A stretch of 32,000 nt of DNA from Trichodesmium erythraeum IMS101 (GCF_000014265.1 NC_008312.1:4140001-4172000), one strand, 5' to 3'; shown: positions 4,855 to 29,524, numbered from the stretch's first letter. Made by a program: numbers and translations. The notes: generated by a model not told the origin, from the letters alone.

Positions 4855-4887
4855 ATTTTTAAACCAATAAGTCTAGATATAATCCTA

Positions 4888-5806: not shown

Positions 5807-5946
5807 AAAATGAACAATTATCTCTTACTAATCTATTCAATCATTATATTGATTTGATAGATAATTTCCACTTAATTTTTATTCATCTAAATAGTCAAAT
5901 TCCTATAGTATATACCTAAGTCAAAACAGAATTTATATTTACAATT

Positions 5947-6816: not shown

Positions 6817-7066
6817 CAACCATTAGAACCTACTGTATGATGTAGTTCATCAATTTGAAAAGCCCTGTCAATGCAAAAATATTGATCTATAAAGGCTTTA
6901 GTATTTTTAGACTTAAAAAAACGTCTATTTTTCGGTCCTAAGAGCCCAAAATACTAACTTTTTGAGCTCTTCCTAGGCAGAAAAATAAAGGGAAAAATAT
7001 ATCCCACTACCTCCTCTATTAATTTCCTGTTTTTCTGTAGGGAAATTGCATAAAAAAAATGGGTTT

Positions 7067-7110
7067 CATCTCCCGTAGCGAAACCTCCTTACTTCTCCTA
7101 CTGGGAGATG
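7067..7110. terminator. Stem-loop in the convergent intergenic region between 5947..6816 and uvrB
   Basis: catctcccgtag (7067..7078) pairs with ctac-t-gggagatg (7098..7110), giving 12 bp with a one-nt bulge and a 19-nt loop. No clear U-run, so terminator function is uncertain. Confidence 0.3.
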
Positions 7111-7238
7111 TTAAGGATGAGTCTCCTACTTCTGAAAAAGACTTTTTTAGCAAACCCTAACCTAATAATATTTAGCCTTCAAAAATGAGGCTTTAGACCC
7201 AATTATTTTGAGCAAGCAAACTTTTTTTTTGATAAATT

Positions 7239-9239: not shown

Positions 9240-9438
9240 GATTATTTTAAAATTAATTGTACCATTCTTCATGGTATCTTGAATTCGTCAAATTAGGATG
9301 AAAAGAAGGAAAAAAAATCGCACATTGACCCACTTTCTAGCCTGAAAGCGCGGATATTTCACTCAACTGCAACTCCAGCGAGTCGCACTTACATTTATCC
9401 CCCCCATGTTCGTTTAATGTCAACATTTTTAGGTATAT

Positions 9439-10699
9439 TTATGGATAAAGTAGTATTCCCAAAATTCCTGCGATGGGAATTATCAGAATAACATCAACTT
9501 TGAAGCGTAAGAGAGCAAACAACCCACCGATTAAAATTAAAGCTGAGACCAAATGAATTTCAACACCTTGTAATAAAATAAATGCTGTAGTAAAAATTAT
9601 ACCAATTACAGCAGAACGAACGCCTTTTAATGCGGCCTGAATTGTAGATAAATTCTTAATCTGTTATAGTAAGTCAGAACAAGTCATCATCAACATTGCG
9701 GGGGGTAAAAACATACCAATAGTTGTAACCAAAGAACCTAGTATTCCCTTGACAGCATAACCAATGAAAGCCGCACTAATGAGCATGGGACCAGGTGTTA
9801 TTTGACTTAAAGCGATCGCACTGGCAAATTATGTTTGGGTTACCCATCCATAAGTATTGATAACAGTCTATTGAATCATAGGAATGAAAACATAACCACC
9901 ACCAAACAAAGTTAGGCTCATCCCTGAAAAAACCATAAAAAGTTTAGCTAGACTAGTATTTTCCAAAAAAGGAAGTGGAACTAAATACAAAACCAAGAAC
10001 GCTGAGAGAACAAAGAAAGAAAGAACTAATTTTGTCTTTGAGATTAATGGAGAAGTGGTAGAATTAGAGATATTACTAGTAGATAGTTCACTAGCAGTAG
10101 TATCATAATATAAAAGGTAACCAAAAATTCCAGACCCTAGTACAATAAGCAAAGTTGTGTAAAATCCTTATACAAACTTGAGAATGATGAAGGCGGCAAC
10201 GGCAATTGAAATAGACTGCCAATTTTTAAGTGTTCTAATTGTTTTTTTACTCAGTCCCCATATAGCTACTAATATAATGGCAACCATAGCTGGAATAAAT
10301 CCAGCAAAAGCTTTACTAATGGCAGAAATTTCACCTACTTGAAAGTAAAAAGCCGTAAAGCTGACAACGAGAATATAGGTGGGTAGCAATACTCCAGTAG
10401 TGCTGGCAAATGCTCCTCTAATTCCTCAAATTTTTAACTTATGTAAGCGACAACATTTACCGCAACCGGTCCGGGAAGAATTGTTGCCAGAGAGATACCA
10501 TCAAGTATTTCTTCATGAGATAGTAGCTTATATTGTCGAACAATTATACTTTCACACACTGAAACCAGTGCCAGAAAGCCCCCAAAAGATGTACTCCCAA
10601 TTTTCAAACAATTTTCAAAAATGCCCAAAATAGAAAACTTTCTTTCTTTAACTTTGATTTAGCATCATTTGGGGTTGAAGTATCAATCATTCTGCCCAT
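9439..10699 (-). pseudogene. chrA: Decayed second copy of the chromate transporter gene
   Basis: Collinear by-eye nucleotide alignment with 2265..3515. The reading frame is broken into track ORFs 9868..10152, 10168..10389 and 10434..10628, each closely matching parts of the intact ChrA. Further stops occur in 9439..9867, for example ctgttatagtaagtc versus ctgttctagtaagtc. Confidence 0.85.
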
Positions 10700-10757
10700 T
10701 TTATAAACATCCTGATCATAGATTTTATTATCTATTGATCAGTGATATTTAATAGCT

Positions 10758-11032
10758 TTCAGTAAAAATAATTATTGTTCTCGTCGTTTTTTATCTTTGA
10801 CATCCATAATATCTCTGACTAGAGCTTTAGTTTTTTCATTTTGTAAATTAAACTAAGCAATTTCTTCGTGACTAAACGTTCTAAATTCTCCTAACTTTCA
10901 AAAATTTTGATTTCTTTTTTTGTTGCCTTACTCAGATATTGATTAGAATTTTTCTTGATAATAGGTTTAGAGACATTAGACAATAGAATACTAGATGATG
11001 CTGTAGTTATAAGCTTCCCTTGACTTATTTGA
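10758..11032 (-). pseudogene. Decayed fragment of the sulfotransferase gene (matches 3869..4185)
   Basis: ataatt(a)ttgttctcgtcgttttttatctttgacatc...ttttcattttgta.at.aaact..gcaatttcttc and ...ttagaatttttcttgataataggtttaga.acattagac match the intact gene. The fragment has an internal deletion and stops. Confidence 0.75.
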
Positions 11033-11286
11033 GGCCATGCACCGAAAGACAGCACTTGCTAATGTCTGAAATCTGGGACTAGGTCCTCACACGGTATCCC
11101 CGTGGGAAGTAATTTAACCTTCATAAGTATCAGAGTTATCCTTTTAAAGGACTGAGCAAATGTAAAACGTTAGAGTTTACTTAGGTCAAAGGAATTGCAT
11201 ACCCTCAATAATAGGATTTATCCTGACTTCTGCTGGGGTAGTTCACAGTAGCAAATACATCTATAAAATATCTATTAGAGTTTCTT

Positions 11287-11547
11287 GTGGTAAACACTAC
11301 ACAAAAAAGACCAGTAAAGTATGTAGGTTCAAATATTGCCCTATTACTGACTCCATACCTACAAAAATTAGCAAAATTGCTCTATCGCACTTATCTCGAG
11401 ACCCATCCTAGCCAAGTTAGACTTCCTCAAGGTGTGGCCATTAGTCTCATTAGTTATCGAGCTGGTCTAATATTCTCCCAAAAGCCAATTTTATTACCAG
11501 GGGAATTTTTTGTCCCTTTAGAGTTGATTGAATCAAAAATTTATTGA
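11287..11547 (+). CDS. Hypothetical protein (GTG start in track); coding status uncertain
   Basis: 86-aa ORF only. No motif recognised, and it lies next to decayed sequence. Confidence 0.25.
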   Translation: MVNTTQKRPVKYVGSNIALLLTPYLQKLAKLLYRTYLETHPSQVRLPQGVAISLISYRAGLIFSQKPILLPGEFFVPLELIESKIY

Positions 11548-11935
11548 TAAATTAGTTTTGATTTTATACTCTCCGCCATATAGAACTTGGCTCCTTAAAC
11601 AGTGAAAATTTCGACTCTTAAAGGGATGATCAAACTCCATCTACGAACCCCCAGAAAATCTCAAAGTTATTCCTATTTCAGGATATAAGAATATTAGTAG
11701 CCCTAGATAGTAGTGGTAGATAGAATAATTTGGTGATGGGTTTATTGGAGTATTGGTCAAACTTTTTTCTTTTAAGCCATCAGGTATAGGCTCATGAGCA
11801 ATTGGCACGATACACTAATTAAGTTAACAAATCTTCACTTGACTGTAAAATTAATTATGCCAGAAGTAATGAGAAAAGATTAGAAGGAAGTAACCTCAAA
11901 AGCTAGGAATGTCACTTTGAACTTTTGATAATTAT

Positions 11936-12757
11936 ATGGATTTACTTATAATGTGGCCTCTAACTCTAATTGTATTTCCCCTAGGCGCATCTATTGGTAG
12001 CTTTCTCAACGTTGTCATTTATCGGATACCTGCAGGATTATCTATTCTGTGGCCTCCATCTCGATGTCCCAAATGTCATAGTAGATTAAAAGCTACAGAA
12101 AATATCCCTATATTTGGTTGGCTACGGTTGCGCGGACGTTGTGGTCATTGTCATAGCCCTATTTCTATTCGCTATCCAATAGTAGAATTAATTACAGCCT
12201 TACTATTTTTAGTTGTTTTTGGGAAATTTGGAATTACTATCTCTACCCTAGGCTACTGGTTTTTTTTTAGTTGGTTACTGGCTTTGTCTATGATTGACTT
12301 GGACACTATGACTCTGCCTAATCCTTTAACTCAATCAGGGTTAATTGTAGGTTTGTTTTTTCAAATGCTTACCACATTTGAAGAAAATTTTCAAGTAAAT
12401 AATCTAGTAAATTATTTGATAATAGGTATTATTGGAGCGGTAGTTGGTCTATGGCTTTTTGACTTAATATCTATATTTGGTTCCATAGCTTTTGGGCAAA
12501 CAGTTATGGGTGGAGGAGATGCCAAACTAGCAGCGATGATAGGAGCTTGGTTGGGCTGGAAATATTTATTATTAACTTGTTTTCTGGCCTGTGCTATGGG
12601 AGCACTTGTTGGTGGAGGAGCGATCGCCTTACGTTTACTAGATCGACGACAACCAATACCTTTTGGACCATTTTTAGCAATGGGGGCTGGTTTAACCGTT
12701 ATCTGGGGTGATAATATACTATCTACTTACCTTAATCTTTTTTTTCCTGGGTTCTAA
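11936..12757 (+). CDS. pilD: Type IV prepilin peptidase / N-methyltransferase (peptidase A24)
   Basis: Cys-pair motif CPKCHSRL...CGHCHSPI, polytopic membrane profile, and catalytic Asp motifs (MIDLDTMTLP and GGGDAKLAAMIGAWLG). Confidence 0.9.
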   Translation: MDLLIMWPLTLIVFPLGASIGSFLNVVIYRIPAGLSILWPPSRCPKCHSRLKATENIPIFGWLRLRGRCGHCHSPISIRYPIVELITALLFLVVFGKFGITISTLGYWFFFSWLLALSMIDLDTMTLPNPLTQSGLIVGLFFQMLTTFEENFQVNNLVNYLIIGIIGAVVGLWLFDLISIFGSIAFGQTVMGGGDAKLAAMIGAWLGWKYLLLTCFLACAMGALVGGGAIALRLLDRRQPIPFGPFLAMGAGLTVIWGDNILSTYLNLFFPGF

Positions 12758-14598: not shown

Positions 14599-14772
14599 TA
14601 AAAGTTATTAAGTACTTGACTAATTGACACCTGAAGACCGATAAATAAAAATTAGAGAAAAGTTAAACAAACCTAAAGTTTTGTAACTTTTGGTTCCTGC
14701 ATAAATATTTCTAGTAATCAACATACTTGTATTGGTTGATTAACTAACTTGCCAGTTTTAAGGAGAAGAAAC

Positions 14773-15258
14773 TTGAAAAAATTTTTCATATCTGTGGTTT
14801 TTATAGTATTGCTGACATTTACAACGTTCATCAACAGTGCCACTGCTGCCAAATTAGATGATAATGTTCGTACTTTACCTCTGAATGAGGACAAAGAAGT
14901 TGTACTTACTATTAAAGAATACACACAAGGCAAAAGGGAATTTACTAATGTTTGTTCTCAGTGTCATGTAGGAGGAATTACCAAAACAAATCCTGATGTT
15001 TCTTTAGACCCAGAAACTTTAGCATTGGCCTATCCAGCACGAGATAACATAGAAGGTCTGATAGACTATATGCAAAACCCTACTACTTATGATGGGTTTA
15101 TTGAGATATCTGAATTTCACCCAAGTATCAAGAGTGCTGATATTTACCCAGAAATGAGAAATCTCACTGAGGATGATCTATATGCGATCGCCGGTTACAT
15201 TCTTGTACAACCTAAAGTTCTAGGTAAACAGTGGGGAGGCGGTAAAATCTTCCGCTAA
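14773..15258 (+). CDS. psbV: Photosystem II cytochrome c-550
   Basis: Signal peptide, heme motif CSQCHVGG, sixth-ligand His in EFHPS, and YPEMRNLTEDD...WGGGKIF. The track ORF starts at TTG 14749. I prefer the in-frame TTG at 14773 (LKKFFISVV...), which follows AAGGAG by 7 nt and matches PsbV N-termini. Confidence 0.9.
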   Translation: MKKFFISVVFIVLLTFTTFINSATAAKLDDNVRTLPLNEDKEVVLTIKEYTQGKREFTNVCSQCHVGGITKTNPDVSLDPETLALAYPARDNIEGLIDYMQNPTTYDGFIEISEFHPSIKSADIYPEMRNLTEDDLYAIAGYILVQPKVLGKQWGGGKIFR

Positions 15259-15525
15259 TATTCTTTTTGTTGAAAATATTGATTAATGATTTTAGATTAT
15301 TGTTTTTTTGATGGGAGATAAAGTTTTCTGTTAATTAAACCCTAATCTAAAATCAGTTATTGATGTTTAATATTTATAAATAGGTAGGCATAAAATTTAC
15401 GTTTTTACAAAAAATTTCAAAAAGAAACTAGAAGCAATTTATAAACTGTTTCTCACTGTTTTGAATTCATCAATTTTTAGAACAATTAAAACTACCTACC
15501 TAGTTACCAAAGTAATTAAAGTATC

Positions 15526-16023
15526 ATGTTGAATAAATCATTACTGATTCGTTTTGTACTAACAATATTAATTATTGTTCAGGTAATAATTTTTGATACT
15601 CAACCAGTTCAAGCTGCTGTAGATTCATATGTCAAAAGGTATTTAGATGCAGAAATACCAGTAGGAATTAAATTAAATAAGCAAGGTGAGCTAAAGAATT
15701 TTTCTGCTGAAGATTTATCTGAGGGTAAACAAACTTTTGCTAAAAATTGTCTAAATTGTCATGTAGGGGGGGCAAATTTAGTTAATCCTTCAGTATCTCT
15801 ATCCTTGGAAAAACTTAAGGGAGCAACACCTCCAAGAGATGATCTGAATAACTTAGTTGCTTTCTTGAGAGACCCGATGATATATGACGGTAGTAGTTAT
15901 ACACTTTTCTGTCGTCAAATTACTGAAAATTGGATGTCTCAACAGGAAGTAGAAAATATAGCGGCATTTATTTTAAGGGCTGCACAGAAAGCTCCTTATT
16001 GGGGAGTAGAAAATGTTCGCTGA
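15526..16023 (+). CDS. psbV2: Cytochrome c-550-like protein PsbV2
   Basis: Signal peptide and heme motif CLNCHVGG. Overall PsbV-like, but it has Cys (YTLFCRQ) at the position of the PsbV distal His. It lies immediately downstream of psbV. Confidence 0.8.
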   Translation: MLNKSLLIRFVLTILIIVQVIIFDTQPVQAAVDSYVKRYLDAEIPVGIKLNKQGELKNFSAEDLSEGKQTFAKNCLNCHVGGANLVNPSVSLSLEKLKGATPPRDDLNNLVAFLRDPMIYDGSSYTLFCRQITENWMSQQEVENIAAFILRAAQKAPYWGVENVR

Positions 16024-16348: not shown

Positions 16349-18544
16349 TTAATATCGGCTCTGAACCTGTGTCACTTCTGTTGCTGTAGATGCTCCGATA
16401 CGGGGTGCAGGTGGGTCAGAAAGCTGGGAATTAGATATATCCAAATCATCCAGTGGTTTAACTTGAAAACTTGCAGAAATATCTGCTCCGTTAACAATAA
16501 CTCCTAAAAATTTTGGCCCAGATGTACTTTCTTCATCTTCTTCGTCATTTGTTAGCTGTTCTATAATTTCTGTCAGTATACCTGATGTAGTATAATATGG
16601 TCGAGTTATAATAATCATTCCATCAGTATATGGCTCCAGAATAAAAGCGTCATTATTCTGGTTCAGACAAGAAGTATCTAGAATGACAAAATCAAAACGA
16701 TGTCGGGAGTCTGAAAGTAACTTTTGCATTTCACTAGATTCTATTATTCTTCCTGGTTGTTTGACAACAGCAGGGCTAGGTATAATATAAAGGTTTTCTA
16801 CCTCTAATACTTGTCTAATACAACTATTAATATCCCCATAATAACGGAGTGGTTCAACACAGCTATCTGGATCAGGAAAAATTTTGAGGGACTCAGCTTT
16901 TGATGGTGACCTTAAGTCGGTTTCAATGAGAAGTGTTCGTTTACCTGCTCGTGCCGCAGCGATCGCTAAATTATAAGCACAAAATGTTTTCCCTTCTCCT
17001 TTAACTCCACTACTCAAAAGCACAACTTTTGGAGCTTGACTTCCCTGAAGAGACAAGTTTGTCCGCAACTTTTCATAGAATTCTAGTTCTGGTGAATTAC
17101 GCTCTATTAACAAAGGCATTTTCTCTAACTTCATATCTGGGTCAAAATTTATCACATCAGGCAATACTCCCAATAAGGGCACCTCTTTTTCTTTTAAAAC
17201 TATTTTAATTTCTTCCCAATAATAGAACTTACCAGAAAGCATTCCCAAGATAAAAATTAAACCTCCACCAAGAACTATACCTGCAATTCCTCCTCCTACC
17301 ATCATTAAAGGCATTGCTATTTCTCCTGTCTTACCTAGCTTACTAACATAAGCTTCCTCAGAAACCGTTAAACTGCTAGTTATCTCTGCCTCTGCTACCT
17401 CAGCATCTTCTAAGGTAGATCGCATCTGATCAAGACGAGACTTTTTCAGAGCAACTTTTTCTTGCAACTGAGTCAGTTCTAATTGCTTATTAGGAATATT
17501 TCTATACTCTAATTGTAATTTTTGCTCAGTTTCAATTGTTGTCTGTAATTGTCGTTGTAACTGCTCTTTTTGAGCTTTTAAAGCAATTAGAGTTTCTGCT
17601 AACTGTTGTCTTGTAGGGTCTAAAGAAGCATCAACTCTAATTTGCTCTACTTGTCTCAATGGTGCTGCAATACCATTACCTCCTAAAACTTCTGCGGCAC
17701 GTTGTTGTAGTTGTTGTTCTGCAACTTGTTTTCGCCTACGCAACTCAACTACGGGTGGATACTTTTCTGTAAAATCTAATAATAATTTATCTAACTCATT
17801 TTCTACTTGATACAACTCTACTCGGAGATTTGCTATAATTGGATCTGCTGCTAGTGCCCGGGCTACATAAGCTTGATCTGCAGTTAACCCTAACTGTTCT
17901 TCTAAACTATTAATTTGAGCTTCCACCCCTTCTAACTGTAATTTCATCTGAGTTTGTTGTTGTCGGTTACCTGCTATCTCTCCTGGTAAAGCACCTGCTC
18001 TTGATGTTATCAACAAAGCTTCTTCTTCTCTCTCAAATTTCTGTAGTTCTTGTTGAGTGTTTCTCAATTCTTCAATGGCTGCAGGCAAGCGCTTATTGAC
18101 TTCTTCAATAATAGCTCTTTGATAAGTAGTATTAATTTTTCGGCTTTGCTTGACTATTTCTGCCATCAGCATATTTACTATTTCTAGGGCTTTTGCCTTG
18201 TCTGTATCTTGATAAGATATTGTGTATATACCTTTTTTCTGTCGTAATTTCAGTATTTTTGGGTCTACCAAAAATTTTTCTGCTACTACTTTTCTAACTT
18301 CATCATTTAGCAACCTCTCTGTAGTAACTGCGGCAGCTTGTTCTTGAATTTTAGTACCAGTCTCAGAAAATAATACTGCAGGACGAATATTTATCAGTTT
18401 ACCTGCAATTGTATGTTTTGCTTTAGGAACTGGCCGCATAGCAACTATTCCTGAAACACCTAATGCTAGTGCAAAAGTTGCGACTCCGACCCACTTGTAT
18501 AGTTCTAAAACAATTAAATAACGTTTAACAATAGGTATAGCCAT
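16349..18544 (-). CDS. GumC/Wzc-like polysaccharide co-polymerase fused to a P-loop BY-kinase-like ATPase domain
   Basis: 731-aa ORF with an N-terminal TM, a long coiled-coil periplasmic region and a second TM. It then has Walker A (SSGVKGEGKTF), A' (LLIETDLRSP) and B (FDFVILDTS) motifs. Confidence 0.85.
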   Translation of the reverse strand: MAIPIVKRYLIVLELYKWVGVATFALALGVSGIVAMRPVPKAKHTIAGKLINIRPAVLFSETGTKIQEQAAAVTTERLLNDEVRKVVAEKFLVDPKILKLRQKKGIYTISYQDTDKAKALEIVNMLMAEIVKQSRKINTTYQRAIIEEVNKRLPAAIEELRNTQQELQKFEREEEALLITSRAGALPGEIAGNRQQQTQMKLQLEGVEAQINSLEEQLGLTADQAYVARALAADPIIANLRVELYQVENELDKLLLDFTEKYPPVVELRRRKQVAEQQLQQRAAEVLGGNGIAAPLRQVEQIRVDASLDPTRQQLAETLIALKAQKEQLQRQLQTTIETEQKLQLEYRNIPNKQLELTQLQEKVALKKSRLDQMRSTLEDAEVAEAEITSSLTVSEEAYVSKLGKTGEIAMPLMMVGGGIAGIVLGGGLIFILGMLSGKFYYWEEIKIVLKEKEVPLLGVLPDVINFDPDMKLEKMPLLIERNSPELEFYEKLRTNLSLQGSQAPKVVLLSSGVKGEGKTFCAYNLAIAAARAGKRTLLIETDLRSPSKAESLKIFPDPDSCVEPLRYYGDINSCIRQVLEVENLYIIPSPAVVKQPGRIIESSEMQKLLSDSRHRFDFVILDTSCLNQNNDAFILEPYTDGMIIITRPYYTTSGILTEIIEQLTNDEEDEESTSGPKFLGVIVNGADISASFQVKPLDDLDISNSQLSDPPAPRIGASTATEVTQVQSRY

Positions 18545-18979: not shown

Positions 18980-19428
18980 TACATTATTATTAAAGACAAC
19001 TAGTTTATTATATCACTTGATAACGTAAGTTGTCAACTAACTCAATTCTCTATTTTTCATTGTTTAGCTATGGCGATCGCCTAATTTTTATATCATCTCC
19101 TGTTGAATAATTCCACTTTGGAGGAGGTAAGGCAGGAGGCTCTGTGGCTATCAGCAAGAGGATAAAATTGGCATTTACACAGAATTTACCGACTGGCACG
19201 TCCTGACGGTGAGGATGAATACCAGAAAGCCTATAAATATTCTGTTTTCAAGGTTATTTGTCTAGGTCCTTATTATACTGCAATTTGATTGATATTCTGC
19301 CTAGCATTCTTGAGTAATGTATTAAATATGCTACATCAGTTTTAAAAAAAAATTTCGACCCCCTAAAGCGGGACAATAAAGGAAAAAGAAAAACAGGGCA
19401 AAGGGCAAAAGGGGAAAAGAGAAAAGGG

Positions 19429-21774
19429 TTAAAGAGTTCTCCCGCCATCGCAGACAAGACGAAAACCAAAAGTGAGGCTGTGGTCGTCGCGCCTATTATA
19501 GTAGAGGCGAACCGCAGAACGGCAAAAAAGAGGATTGTTGCTCCAAGAACCGCCCCGCAGCGGTGATCGAGCTTTATTTCCATTTAGCCAAACACTGCCA
19601 TCTGTAGGCGCACCATCATAGTTATCATGCCATTCATCAGCACACCATTCCCAAACATTCCCGTGCATATCGTACAAACCAAAACTATTGGGTGGAAAAA
19701 TTCCCACATCTGTTGTTTCTTTTCTATATATTCCTTTTGGCGCATTACCGTAAGTGTAGTTGCCATCATAGTTAACTAACTCAGGTGTTATAGTCTCTCC
19801 AAAATAAAATGGTGTTGTTGTTCCGGCTCGACAAGCATATTCCCATTGACTCTCACTGGGCAAACTATATTTTCTTCCTGTTATTTGTGAGAGTTTCTGA
19901 CAAAATTTTATCGCGTCATTCCAACTTACTCTTTCCACAGGACGACTTGCACCTTTAAACTTAGCAGGGTTATTTCCCATAACTGCTTGCCATTGTGCTT
20001 GAGTAACTACATACTTTCCCATGAAAAATTCCGGCACATCTACATAATGTTGCGGATCTTCGTTATCACGTCTTCCTGCTTCCGTCTCTGGAGACCCCAT
20101 CAAAAACCTACCTCCGGGAATTTTTACCATTTCTAGAGAAACTCTATTACCCAGGTTTTCTGTCATTACTTCTGCTTTACCTTTAGTGCGGCTTATTATT
20201 TTTCCTGTGTTGTTCAGTTTAACAGTGGTAAACTCCTGGGTAACAGTTTTTTGTTGTGGTGGAGTAGAAATATCTGCTGGTTCTAAAAGTGCTTCTTGGT
20301 CAGAAGTAGAAATATTTTCTGTAGATGGTTCCTTGAGAAATCTTTGAGTTAAAACCGTCCCCACAAACCCGCTTCCGGCTAAACCTCCTAATATCAAAAA
20401 TATGCGGCTTATTATTTCTCCTGTGTTGTTCAGTTTAACAGTGGTAAACTCCTGGGTAACAGTTTTTTGTTGTGGTGGAGTAGAAATATCTGCTGGTTCT
20501 AAAAGTGCTTCTTGGTCAGAACTAGAAATATTTTCTGTAGATGGTTCCTTGAAAAATATTTGAGTTAAAACCGTCCCCACAAACCCGCTTCCGGCTAGAC
20601 CTCCTAATATCAATATTTGCCTTCTGGTTTTTTTGCCTGGGAGTTGGGTTTTAGGTATAGATCTAGTTGGAGTTTTTGCTTTTGGCTTTGGTTCCGACTT
20701 TGGTTTCGACCTTCCTTGTGGCTTTCCTTGTGGCTTTCCTTGTGGTTTTGATGGAGTTTGAATATTTAAACTTTCTAATAATTCTGTTGACTTTGGTGGT
20801 TGAGTTTCTGAAGTAGGTAAATTCTCAAAATTCTCTGGTTTTGGACTAAATGGAAACTGACTAAAATCTCCCAATTTTTCCTGAATAGCTATCTCATTCA
20901 GAGCTTCTATTGCATCTTCATCAGGACCTTGAGCCGCATTAAGTACCATTCTCCAAAGAGACTTAGCCTTTCCAAATTCTCTTTTGCTTTGTGCCCTAAA
21001 TGCATCAAGTTTTAAAGTTGCAATATCAGCTAAAGTTGCATACTTTGGCATCAAAATTAAATGAGATTTTTCCAGAGGATCAATAGTAATACGAGGAGTT
21101 TGTTTTCCCTTATCTTGAGATAATTCTTTCACCCTATATTTTAGGTAATCATTCAGTTTTTCTACAGTTGCTTTTTGACCTTTACTACCTAACCCTTCTA
21201 ATAATGCATAAGTAAAAGCTCCTTGTTGAAATTCTTCTAATTCCCAAGAATATTCATTAGGACTACAAGAAAAAATAGTAATTACTCCCTTTTCAATAGC
21301 TTCCAGTTCTGTTTGTTCTCCTATTCCTTTACCTCCCCTTCTTGCATCACCCTCATCTCTACAAGCATCCAATATCAAAACTACATTATCGGCTCCACAT
21401 TTTTGAAGTTGTTGAATAATATAATTAACAGAAATTCCACTTTTTTGAACATTTTTATAACCATCAACAGGAATGAGATAATCAATACCATTCTCTCTAA
21501 GACCATGACCACTAAAAAAAAACCAAAAATTATCACCAATACCCATAAATGGTTCTTTAAACTGATTTTCTAACAAGAATTCTAAATTAGAACGAGTTGG
21601 GCGAGTATAATCACCATTAATCTCTGGAGAATAATCTGAGTAGTAAAGAACCTCATCAAAACCTGCTTCTTCCAGCAAAAAATTCCTCATCTTTTCAGCA
21701 TCATTAGCTGCATATTTCAGAGGAGAAAAAAACTGATATTTCTGAACACCTATAGTAATTGCTTTATTAGTCAT
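19429..21774 (-). CDS. Caspase-like peptidase (C14) - Pro/Lys-rich linker - duplicated TM segment - FGE-sulfatase (SUMF1/lectin-fold) domain protein
   Basis: The N-terminus has a caspase His/Cys dyad context (FFFSGHG ... VLILDACRDEG). The C-terminus reads GRFLMGSPETE...RVSWNDAIKFCQKLS...GLYDMHGNVWEWCADEW...LRGGSW...CRSA.R...GFRLVC, typical of the FGE-sulfatase fold. The hydrophobic segment ILILGGLAGSGFVGTVLTQ occurs twice. Confidence 0.85.
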   Translation of the reverse strand: MTNKAITIGVQKYQFFSPLKYAANDAEKMRNFLLEEAGFDEVLYYSDYSPEINGDYTRPTRSNLEFLLENQFKEPFMGIGDNFWFFFSGHGLRENGIDYLIPVDGYKNVQKSGISVNYIIQQLQKCGADNVVLILDACRDEGDARRGGKGIGEQTELEAIEKGVITIFSCSPNEYSWELEEFQQGAFTYALLEGLGSKGQKATVEKLNDYLKYRVKELSQDKGKQTPRITIDPLEKSHLILMPKYATLADIATLKLDAFRAQSKREFGKAKSLWRMVLNAAQGPDEDAIEALNEIAIQEKLGDFSQFPFSPKPENFENLPTSETQPPKSTELLESLNIQTPSKPQGKPQGKPQGRSKPKSEPKPKAKTPTRSIPKTQLPGKKTRRQILILGGLAGSGFVGTVLTQIFFKEPSTENISSSDQEALLEPADISTPPQQKTVTQEFTTVKLNNTGEIISRIFLILGGLAGSGFVGTVLTQRFLKEPSTENISTSDQEALLEPADISTPPQQKTVTQEFTTVKLNNTGKIISRTKGKAEVMTENLGNRVSLEMVKIPGGRFLMGSPETEAGRRDNEDPQHYVDVPEFFMGKYVVTQAQWQAVMGNNPAKFKGASRPVERVSWNDAIKFCQKLSQITGRKYSLPSESQWEYACRAGTTTPFYFGETITPELVNYDGNYTYGNAPKGIYRKETTDVGIFPPNSFGLYDMHGNVWEWCADEWHDNYDGAPTDGSVWLNGNKARSPLRGGSWSNNPLFCRSAVRLYYNRRDDHSLTFGFRLVCDGGRTL
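19465..19560 (-). other. Candidate DGR variable region (VR) at the extreme 3' end of the FGE-sulfatase domain
   Basis: Coding-strand codons read ctg cgg ggc ggt tct tgg agc aac aat cct ctt ttt tgc cgt tct gcg gtt cgc ctc tac tat aat agg cgc gac gac cac agc ctc act ttt ggt ttt cgt. Non-framework codons are almost all NNY and can be derived from AAY. No TR or RT is seen in the window. Confidence 0.4.
20188..20619 (-). repeat. In-frame 216-bp tandem duplication (2 x 72 codons) inside the caspase/FGE-sulfatase gene
   Basis: 20188..20396 aligns with 20404..20612 with about 5 mismatches by eye. The encoded units are ILILGGLAGSGFVGTVLTQIFFKEPSTENISSSDQEALLEPADISTPPQQKTVTQEFTTVKLNNTGEIISR and a near-identical second copy. 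Confidence 0.9.
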
Positions 21775-22180
21775 CCTTTCTCTGCTGTCGTTTAAACTTC
21801 AGCTTAATAGCACCTTTCCCACCAGCTTGGGCCCCATTTCCTAAAATACTAATTTTTCCTTCTCCATTTACTTCAACTGAAAGCTCAATTTCATCCAAAG
21901 CAATTTCATTACGAGTTTGTTTTTCAGCCCTAGTTAATAACCGCTCAACAACGTCAATTAAATGACTCATTTCTGATTCTAGAGTATCTACTTTAACTTC
22001 AAATTCTCCAACATTTTGAACTTTACTTTTATCTGATAATTTAGAAGAATTGCTATGAGAAAATTTAGGAGTAGGTGGAATAAAAGTATCAAGGCTTTTA
22101 GCTCCATCTTTCTGACTATTTTGATTAGTATCAGGAATATTAGCATCACCATAAGTAATAATTCTAATTGTGTCTGACAT
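21767..22180 (-). CDS. Small protein with a trypco2-like (trypsin-co-occurring domain 2 / CU044_2847-like) C-terminal region
   Basis: 137-aa ORF. Its C-terminal LDEIELSVEVNGEGKISILGNGAQAGGKGAIKLKFKR resembles the beta-rich trypco2 signature as I remember it. Its stop overlaps the caspase gene start (ATGACTAA). Confidence 0.55.
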   Translation of the reverse strand: MSDTIRIITYGDANIPDTNQNSQKDGAKSLDTFIPPTPKFSHSNSSKLSDKSKVQNVGEFEVKVDTLESEMSHLIDVVERLLTRAEKQTRNEIALDEIELSVEVNGEGKISILGNGAQAGGKGAIKLKFKRQQRKDD

Positions 22181-22777
22181 AAAAGTTATTTCTCCTTAAC
22201 TACTTTTTATCTATCCGCCTCAAAAGAAGACCGACATTATAAATAATTTTAGCATAGGTTAAGTTTTCATCAATCCCTAAAAAGTAACTTTTCCTCGGAA
22301 GAGAGCTTAACCCACCGCAACTATTTTTGGGAGGGGAGCTTGTTGTCGCCGTGAGGGTACCTGATCAACCTGAAATATGCTGTATGTGTTCTGGTACTTA
22401 TTATTTAGAAAAATTCCTAAAGCCCCTTTCAAATTGATGAACTGCATCGCCATCACCAAAACCTTTTAGGAACCTTGCATATAGGGAACTTACATCAGGT
22501 TGTCTCACTGTGTTCTACCGAGATCAAAACTACTGTAACCACAAGCATTACTCCATGGAACCCCATAATTCTAATTTTCAAACTGCAAACACCACAAATA
22601 GGTAGCCGCTTATTTTGAGAACAGTTGAATACCTCGCCGTTTTTTCAAGTTAAGTACAAAGTTCCAAAAAAAAAGAGAGCCTTTAAACCAAATTTTTAGG
22701 TAAATAATTTTGTGTAAATACTGAAAACATAATTTATTAATTTCCTTCTTTACTTATTGCTAAAAATTAATTCTTAA

Positions 22778-24304
22778 TTAATTCCTTCTACGATTATTAT
22801 TTCTACGATTATTTCCACCACCACCTAAAAATAAATTAGAGGCATCCTGTTGTAAAGAACGGAAAAACAGCAACAATTCCAGGGAACTTCTGACAGGAAG
22901 TGTATATTTTTCAAATAAATAATTAATTTGATTAATCCAAGTACGGTCAATCACAACTATATCCTCATTCTGAAGTAAAATATTTTGAGAACTATCCCCA
23001 AATATCGCTTTTTTACCATTCAGTTCTCGCCTAATTATTTTGCTTTTTTCCTTATCAAATCTAATTAAATTAATTGCCTCCAAATGTGCTGAGTCTACCG
23101 CTATACCATTGAGAATATCTATTAATTTGCTACCATTTGGAAGATTAGTAGTAGCCAAAGTATCATTAGGATGACTAAAAATACGAACAGTAATTTGTTG
23201 TTGACTCAAAGTTGACTTAGCAACTAACTCCCGGTTATAACCAAAATCTGATCCTGGTTCTAGTGGAGGCACAATGATAGCATCCCCATCCTTTAAAGGA
23301 ATATTAGGCAAGTCAGTAGAATTTTGCAAAGGAGTATATAAATCAATTATTTCCTCGATCACACTACCATCACCTAAAGTCCGCCGAACTAAAATTCTGC
23401 GCAGATCCGCAGTTAGAGAAGCGCCACCAGCAGCGAACAAAGCAGAAGATACCTGACTTGCAGGGTAATAACCAGGTCGAGTCACTTCTCCATTTACAGT
23501 AATAATACCAGTAGTTAAAGCCCCTGCCTGACTATAGTTAGTGAGTAGTTCTCTGTCTTTCTCTTCAGGTTTAATAGACTTGAGAGAAGGTATAATGACT
23601 ACATCCCCATCTTCTAAGCGTAAATTAGGAGGAGGACCACCTTCCTGTAGTGGAGTTAAAATATTTACTATCTGACTAACTATAGAGCCATCAGCTAAAG
23701 TCCGACGCACCTCTATATTCCGTAGGTCTGCTGTAAAAGTTGTTCCACCTGCTGCCGAGAGAGCATCTGAAATTTGATAATTTCCTCCTACTGGATAATA
23801 ACCAGGTCTTGTAATTTCTCCAGCTATAGTGACTCGGACCGGACGTTGTACAACCAAAGATATTGATACTTCTGCATCAATGATAAATTGACTGAGGCCA
23901 GAAGTAATTTTTGCGATCGCCTCTGATATAGTTAAATTTTGCAATAGCACAGTTCCGATCAGAGGCATTTGAATTGTACCTTCAGGACCTATAGCTATTG
24001 TTACATTTAAATCAGGAAATCTTTGAACTTGAATTGAAAGTTGATCTCCAGGTCCGAGCAAATAACGTCTGAGTCGTAAATTTGGATCCGAGTCGAAATT
24101 AGGATCTAAAGGCGGAGAGCCTATAGATGGATATTTTATATTATTATTATTTTGTGAAATATTTGGTTGAGAATTATTAGGTAATTGAAGTTGCCCATAA
24201 GCAATTTTGGGAAAAATTAATCCAGCTAAAGTAATGGTTATAGTACTAGAATAAAAGTTTGCTAAAAATAAATAAATTAACTTTCGATAATAGTCATTAA
24301 TCAT
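22778..24304 (-). CDS. Polysaccharide export protein (Wza-like; Poly_export plus two SLBB domains)
   Basis: 508-aa ORF with an N-terminal hydrophobic signal and LGPGDQLSIQV. Two SLBB-like units follow: GE(I/V)TRPGYYP...AAGG...ADLR.I.VRRTL.DGS...L.DGD..I(I/V)P. The tail is a low-complexity GGGGNNRRNNNRRRN. Confidence 0.85.
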   Translation of the reverse strand: MINDYYRKLIYLFLANFYSSTITITLAGLIFPKIAYGQLQLPNNSQPNISQNNNNIKYPSIGSPPLDPNFDSDPNLRLRRYLLGPGDQLSIQVQRFPDLNVTIAIGPEGTIQMPLIGTVLLQNLTISEAIAKITSGLSQFIIDAEVSISLVVQRPVRVTIAGEITRPGYYPVGGNYQISDALSAAGGTTFTADLRNIEVRRTLADGSIVSQIVNILTPLQEGGPPPNLRLEDGDVVIIPSLKSIKPEEKDRELLTNYSQAGALTTGIITVNGEVTRPGYYPASQVSSALFAAGGASLTADLRRILVRRTLGDGSVIEEIIDLYTPLQNSTDLPNIPLKDGDAIIVPPLEPGSDFGYNRELVAKSTLSQQQITVRIFSHPNDTLATTNLPNGSKLIDILNGIAVDSAHLEAINLIRFDKEKSKIIRRELNGKKAIFGDSSQNILLQNEDIVVIDRTWINQINYLFEKYTLPVRSSLELLLFFRSLQQDASNLFLGGGGNNRRNNNRRRN

Positions 24305-24430: not shown

Positions 24431-25150
24431 TTATTTGAATGCGTTTTTTATCAGTGACGCTTGAGTTTTTTGCCCAATAGAAATGAGCTCTGGGAGATAG
24501 GGATCTATATCTGTTAGAGGTTCGATAGGAAATATAATACTTACTGCTACCCAAGGCATGCGCTTTTTAGAAGCCATAGCGAATCTATCAGCCCAAAACC
24601 AATCCCTAGGTTCTGGACTTCCTCCTCCAGGCCAAGCATACCACTGCATAATTGCATAAGTTTGTTCACTTGTCCAACCTCGAAAGAATCTAGCCTTTAT
24701 ATTAGGATATTGTTTTTTTATCTCTGTAGTTCCATTATCATCTTCTACTGTTTTCAAAGTAAATTTAACAGTCTTTTGGGAATCTATTTTCCAACGATTA
24801 AGCCCACTTATATCCATCCATTCTACTTGAGGCTTGTCTTCTGGTCCATTAGGAGTTAACAGTAAAAAAACTATTTCTCTAGTATCATTTTTAACTTTTT
24901 GCAGTAACCATTTATGATTAGAAATTATCAATTGTTGACGATATATTATTGGCAAACCAGAAATAGTTAATCCGTCTTTTCTTATTTGTCTTAAACTTTT
25001 TAAATAAGGTATAGAGGCTGTATTTTCCCATGACCATTTTCCTGCTATATAACCAGGCAAAGTTCCTACTACTAAAATAATTAGCAGAAATAGTACTAAG
25101 ATCACTTGTGGAAATTGATGTTTTTGTAATTTATTGAAAGGATAAAGCAT
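24431..25150 (-). CDS. Exosortase system-associated (EpsI-like) protein
   Basis: 239-aa ORF with a single N-terminal TM (VILVLFLLIILVVGTLPGYI). It lies immediately downstream of, and co-oriented with, the exosortase gene. Assignment is mainly by context. Confidence 0.55.
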   Translation of the reverse strand: MLYPFNKLQKHQFPQVILVLFLLIILVVGTLPGYIAGKWSWENTASIPYLKSLRQIRKDGLTISGLPIIYRQQLIISNHKWLLQKVKNDTREIVFLLLTPNGPEDKPQVEWMDISGLNRWKIDSQKTVKFTLKTVEDDNGTTEIKKQYPNIKARFFRGWTSEQTYAIMQWYAWPGGGSPEPRDWFWADRFAMASKKRMPWVAVSIIFPIEPLTDIDPYLPELISIGQKTQASLIKNAFK

Positions 25151-25262: not shown

Positions 25263-26156
25263 CTATATATCAGATTTATTGGGAAAATCAAGTGAGCTTA
25301 TGAGATAATTATCTACCCATTTCATAATTATAATTAATAAAACCAAAATACCAGCAGAATACATATCACCACCCCATCCATCATGTAACCAATGAAAAGC
25401 TTCATCCTGACCTGTACCATGAAAAATTGTTAGTACAGTATTTCTGAAAATATTTGCACTGACACTAAGTAATACTGCACTAACCAGTAAAAAAGTAGTC
25501 TGAATACGACTCCCTATCGCTCCATTCCAATAAAGTAACATTAAAGAAAAATAGAGACTAGTAAATAACATTTTTAAACCTACACAATGGGGTGCAACCT
25601 CAACAATTTTACCACCGACATATAAATATATTTGATCAATAGTAACGTTCATCTGCAACTGAATCAAAATAAACCCAGCAATTCCAGCAATAAACTTTTG
25701 TAGAGGTAAAGCATAAGGCTCAATTAAATAGGGAATACTATTAGGACTAGCAAGCAAAATAAATAGTAATGGCATACCCATTAATTTCAATCCAGGCATT
25801 CCTTTAAACCAAAGGCAAATTCCTACCAACATTATGATCAAAGATAAGTTGATCAAGTCTGGAATAGCACTGATATACCAAACTCCTGCAATTCCTAATA
25901 ATACTGCTCCCAAGGGATGAAAAACATTAGCTAAATTTTGCCATTTTTGCCTATTAGTCCAAGCAATATAACCAGCAAAAGGTAAGCCTATTATTCCATG
26001 ACTAAAATATTCATGTTCTACACTAATACTTTTATTTAGCCATCCATCGTACCAATACATGATCAGAGGAGCATACATCAAAAATATTAAGACAGCGATC
26101 GCTACTGTCAGTAAGTTTTGTTCAAGAGCAATAATAAATTTTTGACGAGTTGACAT
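25263..26156 (-). CDS. Exosortase (cyanoexosortase-type; the A versus B subtype cannot be resolved by eye)
   Basis: 297-aa polytopic membrane ORF. It carries exosortase-like Cys (APHCVGLKMLF), Arg (NIFRNTVL) and His (FHWLHDGWGG) motifs in the expected order. Confidence 0.75.
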   Translation of the reverse strand: MSTRQKFIIALEQNLLTVAIAVLIFLMYAPLIMYWYDGWLNKSISVEHEYFSHGIIGLPFAGYIAWTNRQKWQNLANVFHPLGAVLLGIAGVWYISAIPDLINLSLIIMLVGICLWFKGMPGLKLMGMPLLFILLASPNSIPYLIEPYALPLQKFIAGIAGFILIQLQMNVTIDQIYLYVGGKIVEVAPHCVGLKMLFTSLYFSLMLLYWNGAIGSRIQTTFLLVSAVLLSVSANIFRNTVLTIFHGTGQDEAFHWLHDGWGGDMYSAGILVLLIIIMKWVDNYLISSLDFPNKSDI

Positions 26157-27952: not shown

Positions 27953-28929
27953 ATAATATTAATAGTTCAAATCAACTATATTAGACGAGTCAACTAAGTA
28001 TTTTCACTGAAAACCAAAGTTCATAAGCCTCGTCATCAAAGGAAGGCTTTATCAAATCTATTTGATAGTTCCTCCCTTAACCATTATTACAGTTTCTTGG
28101 TTTAATCATTATGGGGATAAATAATTTCCACTCGGCCATTAAAAGCGCCCAAAATTACTTAATCTACTACCTACTTCAGCAAGAGTCTTCAACTTGAAAA
28201 AAGACACCAAATAGGTTCTATAATTCTATATTTAAGTTGGTTATGGAAGATTAGCCCTCACTCCTGTGGTAAATCAATTATCAGTAAAAGCTAATATCAA
28301 AAGAGCTTTTGATCGGTTTCGGGACTTAAACAGAGGCATTAGTATTTTGATCATGAATTGTGAATGACAAGTTTTTCAAAGCAATGAGGAGATAACTCCC
28401 TAGCAGGTTAAATTTTGTTATACATTGTTAAACATTTGGAGCGTACCCATAGTATCGGATCAAGATTTTGCCATTGATAAATAGGTAGCCATGAAAAAAC
28501 TTAGCTATATTAAGACTTATGTACTAACCCCAAGCTCCTCCAAAAAGTTGACTTGAGATGAATTTATATTTTTTTAGATAGCGAAAAACTTTAACACCGA
28601 CCTACTTATATGGCTGTATATTCGTCCCTTTGTTTATAACTATCCACTTACAGAGAGAAAATACTGGGTTCACTTCCAAAAATGCCGGGTATATCGCTGC
28701 TATACCTCGTTTGAGTACATAATTTATTTCACGAGAAAAAAAAATTCCTAATTATGTGAGTCAGTATCAAGCTCTGACTAAGGCCAACAAAGAGAACTAA
28801 TATCTGAAAATTCTCCTATCTTAAGTGTTTTTAGCAAACACATATATCACTTGACACCCTATTTGTTTATATGTAGTTCACAGGATGTGAGTTTCCTCAT
28901 TTCAAGAAGCTGATGCAGCCAATAGATAA

Positions 28930-29455
28930 CTACAGAATAAATTAAGAAAGATTCAAGAGGCTAGCTGAAAGTGAAAAAACAAATTGGGTAGCTGTAGGAA
29001 AAGATTTACCTAGCAAGAAAAAATTTATAGTTTTTGACAGCATATCAAAAGTGTAAATAAGTGGGAATAATATTTGCAGAAGATTTAAACCTGAAAGCAT
29101 TAGGGAAGTTTGCTTGAGAAAATATTTGTTTAGACCCTATTCGTGAGTTTATTTTTGACTATTCTGGGTAAACCGATTATACATTTTACCAAACTAGACG
29201 CCAATAGTCAAAGTCAAATATGCCCTAATTGTGGTATTAACCATGGTAAGAAGCAGCTATCTGAGGGAGTTAATTCAAGTTGAGCTGTATCACTGATAGA
29301 GATGTGACTAATAGAAAGAGAATTAAGTACCATCACCGCAGATGGGAAAAAAGCTCACGGAGTGTAAAGAGGTAGTGGCAGGGGTTGATACTCATGCTAG
29401 GCTCTTTGATATAAAGTGAGAATTCCCTACCGTTAATGGTGGGGAGTATGTCAAT
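28930..29455 (+). mobile_element. tnpB: Heavily decayed IS200/IS605-family tnpB 3' portion with a right-end hairpin
   Basis: Multi-frame fragments include IIFAEDLNLKALGK (RuvC-II E context), LDANSQSQICPNCGINHGKKQLSE (zinc-finger motif TSQ.C..CG) and ITDRDVTNRKRI (RuvC-III DRD.N). A subterminal hairpin ccctacc-gttaat-ggtgggg is followed by gagtatgtcaa at 29425..29455. Many stops and frameshifts. Confidence 0.55.
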
Positions 29456-29524
29456 ATTATCCATAGAAAACAACATTTACTCACCCGGGTATCTATTCTA
29501 TATTAATAAGTTAGGAAAAAATAA

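Follow-up and report, generated by a model that had tools for sequence, protein, structure and literature searches.

A small Pepco gene translationally coupled to an orthocaspase gene with a putative lectin-fold sensor domain in Trichodesmium erythraeum: a probable cell-suicide or defence module

Trichodesmium, a marine cyanobacterium, is a globally important nitrogen fixer, and the sudden collapse of its blooms is ascribed to "caspase-like" programmed cell death (PCD), for which the substrate of the executioner is not yet defined. A locus that bears on this question is located in a 32,000-nucleotide stretch of the genome of Trichodesmium erythraeum IMS101 (GCF_000014265.1 NC_008312.1:4140001-4172000; below, the window, with positions counted from its first nucleotide). 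Here, a 137-aa open reading frame (ORF) ends inside the start of a 781-aa ORF that encodes a caspase-like protein with a sensor-like C-terminal domain. What does the small protein do, and what governs its large partner? The analysis indicates that the pair is a real two-gene cell-suicide or defence module and a member of a recently described family.

A Pepco gene coupled to an orthocaspase gene

The two genes and their junction are as follows.

21767..22180, minus strand: Pepco gene, 137 aa, predicted pore-forming pro-toxin (Pfam Pepco, E = 4.9e-28; ABG51879.1)
19429..21774, minus strand: orthocaspase gene with transmembrane (TM) segments and a formylglycine-generating enzyme/C-type lectin (FGE/CLec) domain, 781 aa (ORF and Pfam; accession adjacency)
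21767..21774, minus strand: overlap ATGACTAA, 8 nt, with the Pepco stop within the start of the caspase gene; translational coupling

On the minus strand, the ATG of the large ORF and the TAA of the small one lie within a common 8 nt (...AAGG ATG ACT AA...), which is read as GAT GAC TAA in the small frame and as ATG ACT AAT in the large one. The preliminary description of the stretch had given this overlap with exact coordinates and had taken the genes to be tightly coupled, as they are. Most related loci contain the identical 8-nt overlap or a gap of 1-10 nt. The small protein is a 100% match to ABG51879.1 of T. erythraeum IMS101 and was also found in other T. erythraeum genomes and metagenome-assembled genomes (MAGs); the contigs bearing it are collinear with the window. 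The exact 781-aa sequence had no record in the protein collection searched, and the large gene was assigned to ABG51878.1 of IMS101 by accession adjacency to ABG51879.1. A 109-aa ORF (19254..19583) that overlaps the 3' end of the large gene showed no family match and was treated as spurious.

The small protein had been described as trypco2-like, an identity that did not survive profile analysis. No Trypco2 match was detected, even at E <= 1, for the window protein or for 33 aligned relatives, and Trypco1 was matched below the threshold only (14.2 bits for the window protein vs a cut-off of 24.6; the best E value among the relatives was 0.0022). Instead, the protein matched the Pfam Pepco family PF24393 with 98.3 bits (cut-off 27, E = 4.9e-28) over profile positions 8-112 of 112, and the same family was matched by all 34 sequences of the set. 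The profile of cyanobacterial members is matched by 1056 clusters at 50% identity. The accompanying statement that caspase-like effectors are paired with trypco domains was imprecise: in the survey of Kaur 2020 (PMC7159879), the partners of Trypco domains are trypsin-like peptidases, and those of caspases are alpha/beta-hydrolases.

According to the alignment and an AlphaFold2 (AF2) model, the Pepco protein has near its N-terminus a conserved strand (aa 4-10), which is followed by a linker (aa 13-54) that is disordered and hypervariable, by a second strand (aa 57-63), by an amphipathic helix (aa 64-88) and then by three strands. The mean predicted local distance difference test (pLDDT) score of the AF2 monomer was 65, with values of 75-94 in the core and about 90 in the predicted helix, whose hydrophobic moment is 0.55. 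Charged and hydrophobic residues alternate in the strands EIELSVEV and AIKLKFKR, which would fit the published barrel with a charged lumen and a hydrophobic exterior. The C-terminus carries an invariant KGAIKLKFKR, including invariant Ile125-Lys126 within GAIKLKFKR, followed by 6 residues; 1-6 residues follow KFKR in 67 relatives, and such a short end after the motif is common to all caspase-linked cyanobacterial Pepcos. More distant relatives keep the motif and add Pro-rich tails of 15-25 residues. Comparison of the protein with solved structures gave no sequence match and no fold match (best Foldseek E = 0.96), and leukocidin and hemolysin fragments appeared in the Foldseek output at insignificant scores only.

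The function of the family was determined in Streptomyces, where Pepco forms SDS- and heat-resistant beta-barrels of 9-10 subunits, requires its amphipathic helix, and is toxic only with the catalytic Ser of the adjoining trypsin-like Avs4 protease (Evans 2025, bioRxiv 10.1101/2025.11.14.688446). A C-terminal tail of ~2 kDa is cut off after Ile97, and truncation exactly at this point kills E. coli; the partners of Pepco include FGE-fused serine and cysteine proteases, and the family is prevalent in cyanobacteria (Evans 2025). The preliminary description had suggested that the small protein is a regulator or substrate of its partner. The role of protease substrate is retained and, by analogy with the Pepco family, may be sharpened to that of a death effector, a pore-forming pro-toxin. 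Its remark that few or none of these systems had been tested is outdated for the Pepco family as a whole (Evans 2025) and still holds for the caspase-linked and cyanobacterial members.

Several Pepco proteins with additional regions, the likeness of which was judged by eye, were noted among the relatives: P0348 is fused to a C-terminal region that has TM helices and resembles CHASE2, the C-terminal region of both P0289 and P0349 resembles GUN4, and P0358 has an N-terminal extension.

In the large protein, the N-terminal protease domain contains the following elements.

21079..21768, minus strand: Peptidase_C14 (p20-like) domain, aa 3-232 (Pfam E = 9e-27, 94.7 bits vs a cut-off of 21.4)
21700..21702, minus strand: Asp25 of the conserved ND motif (Asn24-Asp25), coordinates from sequence
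21505..21507, minus strand: catalytic His90 codon, within SGHG, aa 88-91
21361..21363, minus strand: catalytic Cys138 codon, within DACR, aa 136-139

His90 was aligned to the SGHG motif that contains the catalytic His in Arabidopsis metacaspases 4 and 9, and FFSGHG...LDACR of the window protein was aligned to YAGHG...LDMCR of MALT1. The His90/Cys138 dyad is thus intact and in register, and the presence of a caspase-like dyad together with an FGE domain, as previously proposed, was borne out by Pfam matches to both C14 and FGE-sulfatase. Assignment to the EACC1-associated caspases (NF047832) was rejected (59.5 bits vs a cut-off of 140).

The association of the two genes was assessed by a degenerate-pattern scan with one genome per species, which gave 223 confirmed Pepco loci; the best 80 were analysed. 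A C14 ORF is located directly 3' of Pepco in 70 of the 80, with starts nearly all between -8 and +30 nt from the Pepco stop, and this adjacency is far beyond chance. Full caspase-FGE proteins make up 44 of the 70 partners, and the rest are caspases alone or have other C-termini. Nearly all 70 retain both motifs, GHG and D[AST]C. The adjacency across genomes by which the preliminary description was to be checked was thus found, as were C14 homology and alignment of the dyad, and of its premises only the trypco2 homology failed.

A second Pepco type, ~50% identical, is found in locus L112 (6001..7447) and also in L113-L115, where it has an 8-nt overlap with a gene for a 350-aa C14 protein. This caspase stands alone, without a sensor domain; the Pepco relative P0055 of this kind comes from Trichodesmium sp. 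MO_231.B1.

The lectin-fold domain and its variable region

Three features of the large protein were absent from the preliminary description: a variable region (VR) of the diversity-generating retroelement (DGR) type in the sensor, a duplication that includes a TM helix, and loss of the FGE catalytic cysteine. Those of the C-terminal part are as follows.

19453..20133, minus strand: FGE-sulfatase/C-type-lectin-fold domain, aa 548-774 (Pfam E = 9e-56)
19468..19542, minus strand: DGR-type VR, aa 745-769, in which ~16 NNC/NNT codons vary
19401..19467, minus strand: conserved 3' element, GGTTTTCGTCTTGTCTGCGATGGCGGGAGAACTCTTTAA, and C/T-rich 3' untranslated region (UTR); candidate homing region resembling an initiation-of-mutagenic-homing (IMH) site

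The best solved relatives of the domain are PvdO and TvpA, a Treponema DGR variable protein (2y3c). At the position of the catalytic Cys336 of human FGE the window protein has Asn746, the codon of which is one of the hypervariable codons, and the position of Cys341 is kept as Cys751. A true FGE enzyme was rejected on the grounds of the absent catalytic cysteine, and the domain is read as a putative non-catalytic sensor.

Alleles were compared between the window and T. erythraeum locus L002 (GCA_022448615.1). The divergence was 0.5% in Pepco, 0.1% in the C14 domain and 2.7% in the FGE core; in aa 741-770 it reached 18.9% (17/90 nt), with 7, 10 and 0 differences at codon positions 1, 2 and 3. 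The VR of locus L013 (Trichodesmium MAG_R03) differs from that of the window at 23 sites (10, 12 and 1 at the three codon positions). The same ~16 NNC/NNT codons vary in L013 and in three Trichodesmium-type VR paralogues (L108-L110), whereas the intervening codons, the next 37 nt, the stop codon and the C/T-rich 3' UTR are conserved across the VR genes. The 3' element is common to other Trichodesmium VR genes and resembles the 3' ends of the VR and template repeat (TR) of cyanobacterial DGRs. As far as sequence comparison can tell, this pattern is the classical signature of adenine-directed mutagenic homing. When a TR was deduced from six VRs (window, L002, L013, L108, L109 and L110), 16 of 16 mismatches fell on deduced adenines, a partly circular count.

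Two observations on individual alleles were made. At ~12470..12480, L002 has one extra VR codon compared with every other aligned VR, which is not expected from pure template copying. The metagenome contig L001 is identical to the window across Pepco, caspase, linker and VR, and has 12 clustered substitutions confined to the FGE core (19555..20187); this clustering points to a tract of mosaic or recombinant origin, or to paralogues joined into a chimera during assembly.

In the literature, T. erythraeum is described as having two DGRs, both outside the window, with many remote targets (Pfreundt 2014, PMC4143802; Vallota-Eastman 2020, PMC7517822). At least 12 FGE-domain targets were reported in IMS101, one of which (Tery_2077) has a caspase domain; their rewritable codons number 17, the hypervariable sites are confined to the first and second positions of codons, and a 3' stretch of 35 bp is conserved (Pfreundt 2014, PMC4143802). 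The codons, the restriction to positions 1 and 2 and the 3' stretch of the window VR agree with this description. ABG51878.1 is listed among the Peptidase_C14-CLec proteins of IMS101 (Vallota-Eastman 2020, PMC7517822), and VR variation in wild T. erythraeum was documented by Paul & Eren 2022.

A search for the template and its enzyme in Trichodesmium gave negative results. No reverse transcriptase (RT), Avd, TR or TR-like repeat was found within the 32-kb window. An A-free 22-mer from the VR had no match in genome contigs, and a guessed TR 27-mer had none in metagenome contigs, the guess being wrong at two codons according to a third allele. A conserved 19-mer detected 18 metagenome contigs, including two Trichodesmium-like contigs with a VR, and no TR; the search of viral contigs for a TR gave no match. 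The FGE paralogues P0141, P0139, P0163, P0153 and P0158 had no adjoining DGR RT, and one was accompanied by a group II intron RT. A Fischerella DGR RT from a plasmid record, used as a query, retrieved many cyanobacterial RTs, none named Trichodesmium; the clusters followed up from there led to DGRs from outside Trichodesmium, among them those of loci L127 and L128.

A direct link of the Pepco-caspase-FGE class to DGRs was observed in relatives. Loci L127 and L128 (GCA_029976255.1 and GCA_013332695.1, a cyanobacterium with 43% G+C) have the gene order caspase-FGE, Avd (of the bAvd type), RT, TR, Pepco, caspase-FGE, and the last Pepco/caspase-FGE pair has an 8-nt overlap like that of the window. 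The cassette of L127 is arranged as follows.

2480..8987: L127 DGR cassette
6154..6286: TR
6809..7162: Pepco
7155..8987: caspase-FGE

In these two loci, 19 of 21 mismatches between TR and VR1 fall on TR adenines, as do 15 of 18 between TR and VR2, which belongs to the Pepco-linked gene. In addition, a TR-like repeat of at least 79 nt, ~200 nt past the caspase-FGE stop, was detected in 22 of 43 assessable reference loci, mostly of Nostoc; of the 460 mismatches pooled from those 22 loci and a single match of 23 nt, 285 are located at TR adenines. The proportion is at least 80% in four loci, whose repeats are listed below.

8596..8710 of L048: TR-like repeat
8335..8469 of L060: TR-like repeat
8276..8410 of L071: TR-like repeat
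4493..4627 of L087: TR-like repeat

Within the fetched flanks of these four loci no RT was found, and the Nostoc repeats might be templates that are orphaned or act in trans, or the remains of DGRs that have decayed. Just past the repeat of L060, a 108-aa ORF (8489..8815) has a weak NdhJ match (Complex1_30kDa, E = 3e-4); with an intact ndhC-K-J located 5' of Pepco, it may be a duplicated ndhJ fragment that marks insertion of the cassette.

Membrane segments and genomic setting

The protease and the sensor are joined by a Pro/Lys-rich linker and hydrophobic segments, in keeping with the preliminary description; two such segments were found.

20620..20862, minus strand: Pro/Lys-rich low-complexity linker, aa 305-385, including KPQG x3
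20712..20749, minus strand: KPQG x3, 12-nt repeats inside the Pro/Lys linker
20551..20619, minus strand: hydrophobic helix 1, aa 386-408, QILILGGLAGSGFVGTVLTQIFF, hydropathy 1.55
20335..20403, minus strand: hydrophobic helix 2, aa 458-480, duplicate copy, hydropathy 1.88
20187..20613, minus strand: in-frame tandem duplication, 2 x 216 nt (72 aa), found by Tandem Repeats Finder and ungapped comparison

The 20 residues preceding helix 1 have a net charge of +7. Flanking charges of +7 before and -4 after this helix favour an N-in/C-out orientation, under which the caspase would be cytoplasmic and the sensor external; for helix 2 the values are 0 and -4, and its predicted orientation is ambiguous, or frustrated. 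The duplicated 72 aa comprise the TM helix, an acidic spacer and the first part of a beta-hairpin located ahead of the FGE domain. The two copies are 97% identical (about 2-4% diverged) without indels. The duplication was seen in the window, L001 and L003, and a single copy is present in L002 (T. erythraeum) and L013; several metagenome contigs terminate at or near the repeat, at aa ~402-417. Among the 44 caspase-FGE partners, one TM helix was predicted in 25, none in 19 and two in none. With two helices, the sensor may be returned to the cytoplasm, as in the TM-less relatives, or, possibly, one of the hydrophobic segments is not inserted. The 216-nt duplication may act in this way as a topology switch for the sensor.

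Signals around the pair and the neighbouring genes are listed below.

22192..22197, minus strand: ribosome-binding site AAGGAG, 11 nt 5' of the Pepco ATG (sequence reading)
22246..22273, minus strand: promoter-like TTGATG-16-TAAAAT with TG, ~66 nt 5' of the Pepco start (consensus scan)
19358..19374, minus strand: short GC hairpin then a T-run, 55 nt past the stop (consensus scan alone)
16349..18544, minus strand: Wzc-like gene
22778..24304, minus strand: Wza-like gene
24431..25150, minus strand: 239-aa gene without a Pfam match
25263..26156, minus strand: exosortase

The promoter-like site is weak, the regional count of such sites being not above that in shuffles. The hairpin appears terminator-like; alternatively, it could be a DGR target hairpin. 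The pair is flanked by the Wza-like and Wzc-like genes, with the exosortase, an EpsI-like gene and a DegT aminotransferase nearby and the housekeeping genes uvrB, accD, psbV and recA around the locus. This placement is common to three other Trichodesmium species and was not seen in other genera: MAG_R03 and, largely, MAG_R04 contain its upstream part (DegT, exosortase, the 239-aa gene and the Wza-like gene, then the module), and MAG_R02 has only a Wza fragment upstream. In the four Nostoc loci inspected, the cassette follows ndhC-K-J. The exopolysaccharide (EPS) neighbourhood is read as incidental because other genera differ and because promoter-like and terminator-like signals of its own flank the pair.

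No vWA, MoxR or STAND NTPase domain was found in the large protein or in window ORFs of at least 100 aa, and a vWA-MoxR ternary or STAND (Avs) system was rejected for lack of these components in the window. The window also contains no sulfatase gene.

Other observations concern the remainder of the window. A perfect sigma-70 consensus (TTGACA-18-TATAAT with an extended-10 TG) is located at 19007..19036 on the minus strand, in the 885-nt spacer 5' of the Wzc-like gene. On the plus strand, 14749..16023 contains psbV and, in tandem with it, a psbV2-like copy, both of them genes for cytochrome c-550. The regions 9273..11935 and 27953..29524 have no ORF of at least 100 aa, and Rfam and tRNA scans of the whole window gave no matches; the ORF-free stretches fit the unusually large non-coding fraction reported for T. 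erythraeum.

Proposed mechanism, alternatives and known systems

The earlier proposal of a sensor-protease conflict or cell-death module remains the best interpretation and agrees with Kaur 2020 (PMC7159879) and Evans 2025. In the specific form that we consider moderately probable, a Pepco pro-toxin is licensed by a membrane-anchored orthocaspase under the control of a DGR-diversified lectin sensor, leading to abortive infection or kin-protective death. The non-enzymatic C-terminal FGE/C-type-lectin fold would serve as the sensor, its binding surface being a DGR-type VR written by a remote retroelement template. In the presumed ancestral form with one TM helix, the sensor would be periplasmic and the N-terminal orthocaspase cytoplasmic. 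Ligand binding may cluster or rearrange the receptor and switch on the His90/Cys138 protease, either through proximity-induced dimerisation or through autoprocessing within the Lys/Arg-rich linker, or through the two together.

The activated protease would then cut the co-translated Pepco, which, judging by its homologue, may be a pre-assembled oligomeric beta-barrel with an amphipathic helix, and the cleaved form would become a membrane-permeabilising pore that kills or arrests the cell. In a filamentous, colony-forming organism the outcome could be abortive infection or death to the benefit of kin. Orthocaspases cut after basic residues (Klemencic & Funk 2017, PMC5756287), and KLKFKR is invariant; given both, a cut within or just after KLKFKR is the likeliest licensing event. 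The site would thus probably follow a basic residue in or next to KGAIKLKFKR, with the disordered linker (aa 13-54) as the alternative. The identities of the domains, the intact dyad, the lost FGE cysteine, the conserved coupling of the genes, the DGR-type pattern of variation and the physical linkage to DGRs in relatives are results of the analysis, whereas each step of activation is inferred.

A number of points weigh against this mechanism. On the side of the effector, the conserved rule of Ile at P1 comes from serine-protease partners, and the Pepcos tested were not caspase-linked (Evans 2025). The tail of 6 residues (1-6 in the relatives) vs ~20 in the Streptomyces protein means that the cleavage site and the release mechanism may differ from those in Streptomyces, and PADLOC (2023) has no model matching Pepco. 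On the side of the receptor, the two-TM topology is ambiguous and could uncouple the sensor from the protease. As for diversification, no Trichodesmium TR was found by DNA-pattern scans or through protein routes, which leaves the specificity for TR adenines a deduction; the window, L001 and L003 do not differ in their VRs; and L002 has diverged by 2-3% over its 3' half as a whole, where the extra codon also lies, so recombination with another allele or paralogue contributed. ABG51878.1 was catalogued as a CLec paralogue and not as a remote variable protein (Vallota-Eastman 2020, PMC7517822), and one of the two DGR RTs of IMS101 is a pseudogene (Pfreundt 2014, PMC4143802). Finally, the neighbours are polysaccharide-export and housekeeping genes and not a defence island.

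The last of these points would suit the same machinery with a different trigger, namely stress-induced bloom PCD under iron or phosphorus starvation or oxidative stress, in which the lectin domain reads a self or environmental cue. Trichodesmium PCD with up-regulation of orthocaspase genes (TeMC) is documented (PMC4143802; PMC5756287), and the gene is syntenic across Trichodesmium species among chromosomal housekeeping and EPS genes, with no mobile defence island. We nevertheless regard this trigger as rather unlikely: a hypervariable, DGR-written site is better suited to a foreign ligand that evolves fast than to a self or abiotic cue that stays fixed, phage proteins triggered the Pepco-protease modules that have been tested to date (Evans 2025), and the caspase-substrate assays of PCD studies do not report orthocaspase activity (PMC5756287).

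That the window carries a decaying or disabled copy, with the sensor misplaced by the TM duplication, the VR frozen and signalling lost, seems unlikely. Both ORFs are intact, the dyad and all invariant Pepco residues are kept, and the duplication is in frame, retained in several independent assemblies and already diverged by 2-4% between its copies. The lack of any second TM helix among the 44 caspase-FGE partners, which would speak for a relic, is countered by the TM-less relatives, which show that a cytoplasmic sensor works too in the Pepco-caspase-FGE family. In favour of a relic are also the identity of the VR in three T. erythraeum assemblies, the absence of the gene from the remote variable proteins (PMC7517822), the RT pseudogene of IMS101 and the absence of VR changes in culture (PMC4143802); on the other hand, the second DGR RT (Tery_1035, ABG50407.1) is listed with a protein accession, and a disruption like that of Tery_1728/9 is not mentioned for it (PMC7517822).

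It is quite improbable that the large protein is a regulatory protease of the exosortase/Wza/Wzc locus whose lectin domain senses a sheath or EPS carbohydrate, with Pepco as a protease inhibitor or chaperone. The lectin fold and the position between the Wza-like and Wzc-like genes near the exosortase, kept in three other Trichodesmium species, are set against unrelated contexts outside this genus (after ndhC-K-J in Nostoc; beside a DGR RT), against separate promoter-like and terminator-like signals of the pair and the perfect consensus promoter of the wzc-like gene itself, and against the tested function of the Pepco family, which is that of a toxin (Evans 2025). Hardly any weight is given to a true formylglycine-generating enzyme that matures sulfatases while the caspase processes the same substrates, an option recalling a speculation of Asplund-Samuelsson 2012 (PMC3501461) and prompted by the strong Pfam FGE-sulfatase match, given Asn746 in a hypervariable codon at the Cys336 position, PvdO and TvpA as the closest solved relatives, and the lack of a sulfatase gene in the window.

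Returning to the Pepco pro-toxin licensed by an orthocaspase, a wider and more tentative proposal can be made, which we hold as possible rather than likely: Trichodesmium and many Nostocales would share a minimal, three-part anticipatory immune pathway from a hypervariable, retroelement-written receptor through a caspase to a pre-assembled pore, in which the TM duplication is an outside-to-inside topology switch and which acts as the executioner of bloom collapse. The receptor would be extracytoplasmic in one-TM forms and cytoplasmic in TM-less and possibly in two-TM forms. The locus offers a concrete, testable chain of a diversified lectin sensor, an orthocaspase and a Pepco pore; if the chain is true, the Pepco mechanism would be extended from serine to cysteine proteases, and DGR hypermutation would be tied to a defined death effector.

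The components and overall logic are already published: Pepco-protease pairs with FGE sensors in 2025, orthocaspase-CLec DGR targets in 2014 and 2020, and conflict systems with hypervariable FGS domains in 2020 and 2024. The idea of a sensor, a protease and a latent pore toxin, with DGR-diversified FGE sensors in multicellular cyanobacteria, being thus available, the gain is a well-anatomised instance and not a new principle. Four elements were not found in those works: the DGR-type allelic variation at this gene, a cassette set out explicitly as RT-TR-Pepco-caspase-FGE, the KFKR terminus, almost without a tail, of caspase-linked Pepcos, and the duplication origin of the TM pair.

Compared with the modules of Evans 2025, the pair is alike in that a small Pepco gene lies directly 5' of, and is coupled to, a gene for a sensor-bearing protease, and in the amphipathic helix and charged/hydrophobic alternating strands, here predicted. 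It differs in the protease, which is a C14 orthocaspase instead of trypsin-like Avs4, in the sensor, which is a TM-anchored lectin domain instead of a STAND ATPase, and in the tail (6 aa vs ~20) and the expected P1 residue (basic vs Ile).

The CLec/FGE proteins of DGRs (PMC4143802; PMC7517822; Dore 2024, PMC10907252; TvpA, 2y3c) likewise have the VR in the last ~25 codons, variation at positions 1 and 2 of NNC/NNT codons and a conserved 3' element after the VR, in an organism with two DGRs and many remote targets. Unlike them, ABG51878.1 is catalogued as a paralogue, and the 32-kb window has no TR, Avd or RT; in none of those papers are diversified sensors explicitly connected with a Pepco toxin. 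The p20-type C14 domain, the His/Cys dyad and a C-terminal accessory domain are shared with the orthocaspases, including TeMC (Jiang 2010, PMC2853523; Asplund-Samuelsson 2012, PMC3501461; PMC5756287). The metacaspase-FGE-sulfatase architecture was already reported in metacaspase surveys, along with a variant from cyanobacteria in which two TM helices separate the domains; unlike here, the upstream small gene, the VR and a duplication origin of the TM pair were not considered in them.

Among the conflict systems of Kaur 2020 (PMC7159879), the pair stands apart in having no vWA-MoxR, STAND or effector-associated domain (EAD) component at the locus and in its effector, which is Pepco and not gasdermin or a hydrolase, with Trypco2 not detected. 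As in those systems, a protease would license a death effector that is otherwise latent, and recognition in multicellular cyanobacteria would fall to a hypervariable FGS (FGE) module.

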